A DNA stretch of 64,000 bases from Candidatus Bathyarchaeota archaeon (GTDB lineage: Archaea > Thermoproteota > Bathyarchaeia > 40CM-2-53-6), in contig CAVTBR010000001.1 in the NCBI GenBank assembly GCA_963733055.1, forward strand, positions 1,312,001 to 1,376,000, in the 5' to 3' direction. This document shows positions 20,586 to 40,985 of the stretch, piece by piece. How positions within the stretch are numbered: position 1 is the stretch's first letter; every line of letters begins with the position of its first letter. The notes below the pieces were generated by a model, which searched no databases, had not been told where the DNA came from, and saw nothing but the letters and a program-made list of their open reading frames with translations. Both the position numbers and the translations under genes were made by a program.

Positions 20586-20740
20586 TGGTGCGGGGAAGGG
20601 GATTCGAACCCCTGAAAGCTTACGTGCCCTGTGCGGGCTCTACGCTACAGGATCCCTTATCCAAGTCAACTCTTCGATCTTAAGTTTAACACCGCGATTT
20701 TCGCGGTCCTGCCCCTTTGACCTGGCTCGGGTATCCCCGC
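20586..20740 (-). tRNA. tRNA-Leu(TAA) with three introns (30/31, 37/38, variable arm)
   Basis: Removing 20686-20707 (22 nt), 20654-20678 (25 nt) and 20620-20639 (20 nt) gives an 88-nt cloverleaf with encoded CCA; each junction forms a BHB-type motif. Confidence 0.9.
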
Positions 20741-20832: not shown

Positions 20833-20966
20833 GGGCCCGTAGCTCAGGTTGGATAGAGCGGCAGAACGGTTGCCGAACCCCCTAAGGAACACCGGAAAAA
20901 GCTGTAGAACCCAGTGAGTGGAACTGGGTGCAGAGGTCCGGGGTTCAAATCCCCGCGGGCCCGCCA
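20833..20966 (+). tRNA. tRNA-Arg(CCT) with three introns (30/31, 37/38, 45/46); C at position 33
   Basis: Introns 20865-20877 (13 nt), 20885-20899 (15 nt), 20908-20935 (28 nt); mature 78 nt with A20 Arg determinant and CCA. Confidence 0.85.
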
Positions 20967-26728: not shown

Positions 26729-27295
26729 CTAAACTTTGAGTGAACTTAGCGTATAGTATACGATATCTGTTCGCCGGTCCACAACGGCAAGTATCAGTTC
26801 TTTCTTTTCCTTATCTGAGTACTTGAGAAGTTTTCCCAGTTTCTTCAAGCTAGCTTCTCCTCCTTCGTAGACGATGGAGATTAGTCGCCTCAAGGGGCCC
26901 TTTCCGTAAATGTCGAAGTCGAAGGCCTTCGTTGATTCGCGCACAATGTATCCTCTATCCCGAAGGTCCCTGTAAACCAGATACTTTATCCAAATTTCCG
27001 GTTTCCCAACTGAGAACTTGCGGACCAAGTCTCGCAGTTCTAGTTCGTGCTCGCTGCGTTTGTCGAAGATGCGTATCTTCTGCTTCTCTAGGAGGTAGAA
27101 GGACTCGTACGCGGTAAACAGGAGTTTGTCTCCTCTAAGATCTCCGAATCCTCGATCCCTGAGCTCCATTAGTTCAGGTTTGTATGGTATGTAGACGCGC
27201 TTTGCGTCCGCCATTGTGTTCCATGGAGTGAACTGAGGTTTTTCTTCGGCCTGCGCTGGGGGGGTGATTGCGGGTTGGTTGGCGGTGTTCTCCAA
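26729..27295 (-). CDS. endA: tRNA-intron endonuclease subunit, probably structural (non-catalytic) type
   Basis: YESFYLLEK, KYLVYRDLRDRGYIV, LILAVVDRRTDIVYY; no His after DFDIY..GP. Confidence 0.85.
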   Translation of the reverse strand: MENTANQPAITPPAQAEEKPQFTPWNTMADAKRVYIPYKPELMELRDRGFGDLRGDKLLFTAYESFYLLEKQKIRIFDKRSEHELELRDLVRKFSVGKPEIWIKYLVYRDLRDRGYIVRESTKAFDFDIYGKGPLRRLISIVYEGGEASLKKLGKLLKYSDKEKKELILAVVDRRTDIVYYTLSSLKV

Positions 27296-30654: not shown

Positions 30655-30769
30655 GGGCCCGTAGTCGAGCTAGGATTAAGACACAGAGACACAGCGAAGT
30701 CGTGCAAGCCTTCGGAGTTTCGACAGAGAAAGCCTGGGATCCGGGGTTCGAATCCCCGCGGGCCCGCCA
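30655..30769 (+). tRNA. tRNA-Arg(TCG) with two introns (29/30, 37/38)
   Basis: Introns 30687-30707 (21 nt) and 30716-30730 (15 nt); mature 79 nt with CAGGC-CT-TCG-GA-GCCTG anticodon arm, A20 and CCA. Confidence 0.88.
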
Positions 30770-38593: not shown

Positions 38594-38735
38594 AATCTAC
38601 TACCTCAGTCAATATCGGCAGATTGCCAAGAAACGAACGAGAATCTCCTCATGAGAATCAATCTTGACGAGAGTTGGCGATTTTCTGGTGGTCAGCAAGG
38701 CTTTAAACTGGCTTCGAGGGGTGTGAGTTGCAAAC

Positions 38736-38840
38736 GCCCTGGTCGTTCAGTGGTCTAGGATGACGGCCTGTCACGTCGTCGACGCGGGTTCGAATCCCGC
38801 CCAAAGGAGCAGCCTGAAACTCTCCTGGCGAGGGGCGCCA
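38736..38840 (+). tRNA. tRNA-Asp(GTC) with a 29-nt intron in the 3' acceptor strand (68/69)
   Basis: Removing 38804-38832 restores CCAGGGC-G-CCA, which pairs with 5' GCCCTGG; strict BHB. Confidence 0.9.
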
Positions 38841-38854
38841 ACCCGCGGTTCAGA

Positions 38855-38995
38855 TCACTCATCGAAACCGACAAGCTTCTTGACATCCTTCTTCTCCATT
38901 TTATCGCCCTTGCAACGCGGGCAGGTTGGCGTATTGGAGGCGGAAAGAAACTCGTAACCGCACCCTGCGCATTTCCAGTAAATAACATCCTGCAA
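38855..38995 (-). CDS. 46-aa zinc-ribbon protein (not in ORF track)
   Basis: TTG start: MQDVIYWKCAGCGYEFLSASNTPTCPRCKGDKMEKKDVKKLVGFDE; GGAG upstream. Confidence 0.75.
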   Translation of the reverse strand: MQDVIYWKCAGCGYEFLSASNTPTCPRCKGDKMEKKDVKKLVGFDE

Positions 38996-40825: not shown

Positions 40826-40985
40826 GGGCCCGTAGCTCAGTCAGGTAGAGCATCGGTGACGCCGTGTGGCGTTGGTGAGGCTTTTACCTCTGGGCGATTC
40901 GAACCCATGGGAAGCCACCCGAAAAGCTCGGCTTAGAAGCCTTCTTGGGGAAGGGTCCCGGGTTCAAATCCCGGCGGGCCCGCCA
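40826..40985 (+). tRNA. tRNA-Lys(TTT) with three introns (30/31, 37/38, about 43/44)
   Basis: Introns 40857-40879 (23 nt), 40887-40916 (30 nt), 40923-40952 (30 nt); mature 77 nt with TCGGG-CT-TTT-AA-CCCGA arm; third boundary uncertain by 1-2 nt. Confidence 0.87.

Follow-up and report, generated by a model that had tools for sequence, protein, structure and literature searches.

A predicted BHB intron in the 3′ acceptor strand of tRNA-Asp in Bathyarchaeia and a conserved trailer complementary to the T-arm

The tRNA-Asp gene and the insert in its acceptor strand

Analysis of a 64,000-nt stretch of DNA (the window; G000:C1:1312001-1376000) revealed a tRNA-Asp(GUC) gene at positions 38736 to 38840 (Table 1). 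The host genome (G000) is a MAG of 2.88 Mb in three contigs, with a contamination estimate of 5.28%. The first exon closes with the 3′ T-stem strand CCCGC followed by CCA, which represents tRNA positions 66 to 68. A CTTTAA[A/G] element is positioned at an equal distance upstream of the gene in 23/23 genomes of the genus, amid diverged flanks. Judged from general knowledge of archaeal promoters, the CTTTAAA sequence of the window (38701 to 38707) may act as the promoter. Downstream, a 46-aa zinc-ribbon ORF with two CxxC pairs (38855 to 38995, minus strand) is convergent on tRNA-Asp. Its stop codon lies about 14 nt past the CCA, its Pfam matches are weak and below the cutoff, and its 3′ end is conserved in close relatives.

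TABLE 1 Features of the tRNA-Asp locus and of associated genes in the host genome (window positions unless a contig is named)
Feature	Position	Strand	Basis or remark
TATA-box-like element CTTTAAA	38701..38707	+	about 29 nt upstream of tRNA 5′ end
Exon 1 (tRNA positions 1-68)	38736..38803	+	ARAGORN and Rfam tRNA match, 43.4 bits; ends ...CCCGC-CCA
Exon 1, acceptor 5′ strand	38736-38742		
Exon 1, anticodon GTC	38770-38772		
Exon 1, T-stem	38784-38788 + 38796-38800		
Trailer partner CGCGGGT	38783..38789	+	position 48 (C48), T-stem 49-53, T54
Splice motif 5′ half, h + H	38796..38801	+	pairs with 38827-38830 and 38834-38835; 100% of cells paired in 36 sequences
Predicted intron, 29 nt, between 68 and 69	38804..38832	+	exact hBHBh′ geometry, conserved site, co-variation
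Exon 2: GGGC (69-72), G73, encoded CCA	38833..38840	+	same in 23/23 congeners; completes acceptor stem
Trailer element ACCCGCG	38841..38847	+	7 nt directly after CCA; complements 38783-38789
EndA-family paralogue, 188 aa	26729..27295	-	Pfam tRNA_int_endo and its N-terminal domain
Alpha-like EndA paralogue, 185 aa	G000:C3, outside window		matches A. pernix 3p1z_B, E 3.6e-39
Tyrosine-integrase match	G000:C3:545976-546404		near tRNA gene
Tyrosine-integrase match	G000:C3:150837-151274		near tRNA gene
Tyrosine-integrase match	G000:C1:1427721-1428194		near tRNA gene
Tyrosine-integrase match	G000:C2:334882-335358		near tRNA gene

Analysis of the unedited gene with ARAGORN and Rfam placed tRNA-Asp(GUC) at 38736 to 38808 and gave three nonstandard acceptor pairs. 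The initial annotation had anticipated that standard annotation would call the gene truncated; instead, both tools return a tRNA of full length whose 3′ end is wrong and mismatched. A single tRNA-Asp candidate was detected in G000, by ARAGORN with introns allowed, by BLAST, and by a scan that detected one GUC anticodon arm near a T-arm and that a second tRNA-Asp with a canonical intron would escape. The window contains further tRNAs at 20833 to 20966, 30655 to 30769, and 40826 to 40985 (plus strand) and a T-arm near 20613 (minus strand). They have intact T-arms, paired acceptor strands, and an encoded CCA, and default ARAGORN missed all of them; with introns allowed, the program found three, with doubtful identities. 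A census of introns in all G000 tRNAs, based on BHB combinations and ARAGORN, was abandoned, as the assignments were too few and partly spurious.

Inspection of the 29-nt insert revealed the complete set of elements of an hBHBh′ motif. Helix h is formed by CC at 38796 and 38797 (T-stem positions 61 and 62) and GG at 38834 and 38835. The central helix H of 4 bp is formed by CGCC at 38798 to 38801 (T-stem positions 63 to 65 plus C66) and GGCG at 38827 to 38830. On opposite strands of H lie two bulges of 3 nt each, CA|A (38802 to 38804) and AG|G (38831 to 38833). Helix h′ comprises 5 bp in the window, with AGGAG at 38805 to 38809 paired to CTCCT at 38822 to 38826. The claim of a strict hBHBh′ intron at 68/69 was borne out by this exact geometry and by 36/36 distinct intron-bearing variants, which share the site. 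In all 36, H is paired at 4/4 positions, h at 2/2 (an invariant CC/GG of 2 bp), and the bulges measure 3 and 3 nt. The uninterrupted run of h′ is 5 to 10 bp in 32/36 variants and 2 bp in four family-E genes (L029, L034, L060, and L061). H and h use T-stem bases 61 to 65, and therefore the T-arm must open for splicing. This had been proposed from the sequence, and it agrees with the finding that T-arm and motif are mutually exclusive.

In silico excision was performed with cuts after the second base of each bulge, a rule that reproduces the canonical 37/38 splice in tRNA-Val(CAC) of the same genome. As predicted, removal of the 29 nt restored CCAGGGC-G-CCA, and ARAGORN recognized the spliced sequence as a 76-nt tRNA-Asp with seven Watson-Crick acceptor pairs, G73, and CCA. 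The frequency of such inserts by chance was determined in G000 by scanning 62 T-arm candidates for inserts at sites 65/66 to 72/73 that show a strict BHB and restore the acceptor stem. Only tRNA-Asp carried one; a comparable BHB insert was found in 0/61 other T-arm candidates, and 30 other T-arm sites have uninterrupted 3′ acceptor strands.

Conservation, distribution, and co-variation of the intron

All 22 other genomes of the genus match the window across tRNA, insert, and trailer, with the reservation that genomes of one clade are nonindependent samples. Exon 1 is identical in 19/23 congeners and exon 2 in 23/23. The intron occurs in 20 distinct sequences of 24 to 32 nt among the 23 genomes, and identity to the window in the 20-nt flanks is only 36% on the 5′ side and 27% on the 3′ side. 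When 185,579 species genomes were scanned for the pattern, 35 loci were recovered, nearly all in Bathyarchaeia, and 33 of these show the same succession of T-arm, intron, and exon 2. One of the remaining loci is cut by a contig end; the other is without a T-loop and is probably a chance match. Three pattern loci are found in MAGs labeled bacterial and are identical to genus sequences. These records (L042, L044, and L053; Acidiferrales, Acidoferrum, and Methylomirabilota) are contigs with a genus-identical tRNA-Asp and probably represent misbinned archaeal contigs.

The intron at 68/69 is present in 23/23 genomes of the genus and in six families of one Bathyarchaeia order (f1, f2, f5, f7, f9, and f10). 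The same counts, together with the 35 pattern loci in the species-representative collection, do not support the description of the intron as very rare within the clade. The same order also has intronless tRNA-Asp genes; these are found in f3 and f8, in part of f2, and in g2, the sister genus within the family of the window. At the junction, intronless relatives (e.g., L030 and L076) read ...CCCGCCCAGGGCGCCA without a break, which is the predicted ligation product. The natural intronless gene L030 was used in a BLAST search of 401 Bathyarchaeia genomes. Among the 150 matches listed (a further 518 were not), most extend through to CCA, and nine end at the intron site, all in the window's order (f5, f7, and f10). 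The second BLAST matches in G006, G010, and G017 were rejected; they represent a different tRNA that shares the T-arm and has no 68/69 intron.

To describe the co-variation of the intron helices, the 36 distinct intron-bearing sequences were aligned (alignment A1). In this alignment, 93.1% of the cells are paired versus 40 to 50% with the partner columns slid, and the co-variation score was reached by 0/500 shuffles. Both-side changes were observed at 5/5 pairs of h′. Helix H is 100% paired with one compensatory change, a single event in a single lineage (L101, family f10), where CGCC/GGCG is replaced by CGGC/GCCG. Position 68, upstream of the intron, co-varies with position 5 (A68/T5, and T68/A5 in L025), and therefore the placement of the junction is fixed. 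The insert is neither chance nor artefact because it is present in 23/23 genomes of the genus and in six families, its helices co-vary, and intronless relatives match the spliced product.

An assembly or binning artefact or a chance match, for which the MAG status of the genome and its estimated contamination might speak, is accordingly a practically negligible explanation. The gene is carried by a contig of 1.57 Mb, and none of the 61 other T-arm candidates is comparable. Genomes from six families, assembled independently, share the architecture, as do contigs of four sequencing runs from four studies. These four RNA-library runs gave one contig each, with the unspliced gene of a relative and no joints; contigs of this kind cannot show the absence of splicing. 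Only 5 to 6% of the sampled words were present in the six runs listed. Another reading holds that the 29 nt are retained, either as an extra hairpin of the acceptor stem or in a decaying copy, with another, undetected tRNA-Asp serving the cell. It draws on the minimum-energy fold without trailer, in which the T-arm and an acceptor-like helix persist and the insert forms a hairpin, and on the many G000 tRNAs missed by ARAGORN, among which a second, heavily interrupted tRNA-Asp is conceivable. A plain hairpin, however, gives no reason for two exact 3-nt bulges, nor does it explain the complementarity of GGCG to the T-stem and its joint flip with base 65. Across the 23 genomes, purifying selection on the exons is strong, and the intronless orthologues have the sequence predicted for the spliced product. 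With an arm in its acceptor helix, the tRNA would also collide with AspRS, the elongation factor, and the ribosome. We consider retention very improbable. From the sequence comparisons, the 29-nt insert is very probably a real, spliced BHB intron, and cleavage would take place at its predicted boundaries.

The 3′ trailer and its predicted effect on folding

The heptamer ACCCGCG that follows the encoded CCA is identical in 21/23 congeners, a degree of conservation equal to that of the exons, and the next 20 nt are only 27% identical. Trailers were compared by counting the longest Watson-Crick run between the first 22 trailer bases and positions 43 to 55. A run of at least 6 was found in 33/36 intron-bearing variants and in 0/25 intronless genes. 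The intronless genes compared include 8/8 from g2, the sister genus in this family. The complement extends past the stem to positions 45 to 48 and 54 to 55 and reaches up to 11 bp in L025 and L064; therefore, the trailer does not duplicate the 3′ T-stem strand. In L101 (f10), T-stem pair 49:65 is changed from G:C to C:G, the H strand from GGCG to GCCG, and the trailer from ACCCGCG to AACCCGGG; this three-way co-variation was seen in one lineage only. The complement is weak (5 to 6 Watson-Crick pairs) in f5, L034, L060, and L008, all of which bear the intron, and therefore the trailer is either dispensable or has a different mode of action there. The complement of L025 extends into the 3′ end of the neighboring 48/49 intron, which complicates the simple model. 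Congener L008/L048 (G004) has A for G at position 49, which leaves one A:C mismatch in the T-stem and another in the proposed trailer helix.

Trailer complements of 7 to 9 nt were also detected in 3/26 other tRNAs of G000, where they are unconserved in congeners. Such matches arise without a 68/69 intron; among shuffled trailers, 152/10,000 reached 7 pairs. No intron-related reason was found for the other trailer-complement tRNAs, their motifs are unconserved, and they were rejected as intron related and are probably relics of mobile elements. Two of them are located near integrase genes, at about 350 nt and 4.4 kb. Each of these two trailers includes a stretch of the T-arm of its tRNA in inverted orientation, unconserved in congeners, and both are probably integration relics. 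The 3′ ends of tRNA genes are used by many integrases. In G000, six Phage_integrase matches were found, all outside the window and none near tRNA-Asp. Of the six genes, three are separated by no more than about 350 nt from the 3′ end of a different tRNA gene, and a fourth is 4.4 kb away from one. With up to 3 mismatches allowed, no second copy of the 20-mer from the T-arm to position 68, as an att duplication would leave, was found in the window. These locations are at most anecdotally compatible with the idea that the intron destroys an att target.

Folding energies were predicted with ViennaRNA at 37°C with no protein, magnesium, or modifications. For the window gene without trailer, the cloverleaf-like fold was predicted at -39.7 kcal/mol versus -30.1 kcal/mol with the BHB enforced. 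With 9 nt of trailer added, the free minimum-energy fold was -48.9 kcal/mol, with the trailer paired to the 5′ T-stem strand, and the BHB-enforced fold (-43.8 kcal/mol) was favored over the T-arm-enforced fold (-41.8 kcal/mol). The mean difference between BHB-enforced and T-arm-enforced folds of the 20 distinct genus genes was +9.3 kcal/mol without trailer, -2.8 kcal/mol with the native 10-nt trailer, and +5.9 kcal/mol with shuffled trailers. In these predictions, the trailer moves the balance by about 12 kcal/mol toward the splice-competent fold. After in silico splicing, cloverleaf (-36.3 kcal/mol) and trailer helix (-35.8 kcal/mol) are about equal, and the cloverleaf is no longer disfavored.

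The intron may also be real and spliced by the same BHB route with the trailer unrelated to it, ACCCGCG being a signal for 3′-end processing or termination or simply a co-inherited sequence. The BHB motif itself uses no trailer base, some intron-bearing lineages have only 5 to 6 complementary bases, and similar complements have come about by other routes in three other tRNAs of G000. According to PMC3241643, the crenarchaeal enzyme also needs no whole pre-tRNA fold. Against this stand the strict association of runs of at least 6 pairs with the intron (33/36 versus 0/25) and the trailer of L101, which tracks the flip of T-stem pair 49:65. A complement that passes the stem on both sides, no copy of the 3′ T-stem strand, argues in the same direction, as does the prediction that the BHB fold without trailer is about 9 kcal/mol worse than the T-arm fold. 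We therefore regard an unrelated trailer as unlikely and favor, with some reserve, refolding of the precursor assisted by the trailer, as the folding model suggests.

Splicing enzymes, proposed pathway, and related systems

Searching G000 for the splicing machinery revealed two EndA paralogues and RtcB. The alpha-like paralogue keeps the residues aligned to Y125, H133, and K164 of A. pernix, which PMC3241643 places among the residues of the predicted catalytic pocket. The paralogue in the window (26729 to 27295) is diverged and has only weak matches to solved EndA chains. Read by eye, it appears to have lost the catalytic His, and it is probably the noncatalytic beta subunit of a two-subunit splicing endonuclease. 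The two proteins would form an EndA heterotetramer in the host. Noncanonical introns are cut only by two-subunit and epsilon-type enzymes, as stated in PMC5829648.

We propose the following pathway. It builds on the motif with its conservation and co-variation, on the association of trailer and intron, and on the predicted energetics; the cleavage itself, the succession of the steps, and the part played by the trailer are inferred. The gene would be transcribed from its own TATA-like promoter, together with the 3′ trailer. In the precursor, the trailer ACCCGCG would pair with C48 and the 5′ T-stem strand. The freed CCCGC and C66 could then pair with GGCG at the 3′ end of the intron and with G70 and G71, forming the strict hBHBh′ with its sites in the 3-nt bulges. 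The two-subunit endonuclease of the crenarchaeal type would cut after A68 and before G69, and RtcB would join the exons. With a 7-bp acceptor stem now possible and the trailer trimmed, the cloverleaf would form. The pathway implies that splicing takes place before 3′-end trimming. On balance, we favor the interpretation of the gene as a functional tRNA-Asp(GUC) with an EndA-type BHB intron at 68/69 and this trailer-assisted pathway.

The tRNA-Asp genes of the order also carry strict BHB introns at 4/5, in the D-arm, and at 48/49. L026, L027, L069, L070, and L025 have a strict BHB intron between positions 4 and 5, with H and h using bases of the 5′ leader; splicing must therefore precede RNase P cleavage. 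Up to three introns per archaeal tRNA gene are given in PMC8450103. L025 (G025:C23), about 215 nt long to the CCA, has four predicted strict BHB introns of 21, 20, 23, and 32 nt at 4/5, in the D-arm, at 48/49, and at 68/69, and removal of all four yields a tRNA-Asp recognized by ARAGORN. The trailer 7-mer may be a built-in conformational switch that exposes the acceptor-stem intron to EndA and enforces splicing first and 3′ trimming afterwards. Taken together with the leader-dependent 4/5 introns of relatives and with L025, both acceptor strands would host BHB introns when flanks are recruited. To us the case for this extended reading is evenly balanced.

The tRNA-Asp intron has the defining features, so far as examined in the sequence, of the noncanonical BHB introns of Crenarchaeota and would work like them. 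Those introns (in Thermoproteales and others) include the "extreme" position 3/4 in the 5′ acceptor strand (Sugahara 2008, as cited in PMC4090602). Both are EndA-type BHB introns at a site other than 37/38, with a two-subunit EndA predicted in the host here; in both, several introns per gene are possible, and gain or loss takes place between close lineages. The passages of PMC4090602 consulted give the known archaeal positions as 3/4 and 20/21 to 59/60 "etc.", and 68/69 in the 3′ acceptor strand, unlike the crenarchaeal sites, is absent from the positions named there. The bathyarchaeal host and the conserved complement in the 3′ trailer are further differences.

The motif shares with the T-arm introns at 53/54, 56/57, and 59/60 (listed in PMC4090602) the need for an unfolded mature T-arm, so that the precursor would first adopt a noncloverleaf fold. 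Unlike in those genes, the T-arm sequence is unbroken here; its 3′ strand is borrowed as H and h, the splice sites lie in the acceptor stem, and the 5′ T-stem strand has a dedicated partner in the trailer. In split and permuted tRNAs (Nanoarchaeum, Caldivirga, Thermofilum, and Cyanidioschyzon), leader and trailer build the BHB, according to PMC4090602, PMC3218864, and PMC3728597. There, as proposed here, sequences outside the tRNA present the substrate to EndA, and splicing would precede end maturation. Those flanks form the BHB themselves, whereas the role proposed for the trailer of tRNA-Asp is indirect: it would tie up the competing strand of the T-stem. The 4/5 introns of L026, L027, and L069 use the 5′ leader directly in H and h, as the flanks of split and permuted tRNAs do.

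Our literature search found no description of an intron in the 3′ acceptor strand, and such positions may be listed in Figure 2 of PMC4090602 or in the supplementary tables of PMC8450103. It likewise found no description of tRNA introns of Bathyarchaeia, no trailer described as freeing a strand for a BHB motif, and no statement that both acceptor strands host BHB introns when flanks are recruited. tRNAscan-SE 2.0 includes a routine for introns near the 5′ or 3′ end, as described in PMC8450103.

The intron at 68/69 would extend archaeal tRNA introns to the 3′ acceptor strand, a region that the synthetase reads and many integrases use. Both ARAGORN and the Rfam tRNA model settle on a wrong 3′ end at this gene and miss other tRNAs of the genome, and the tRNA sets of Bathyarchaeia are likely under- or miscalled. 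The combinations of tRNA-Asp introns in the order (4/5, D-arm, 48/49, and 68/69) represent a natural experiment on intron gain and loss. The comparative data lead to a testable model of a precursor that would be held off its native fold until it is spliced.
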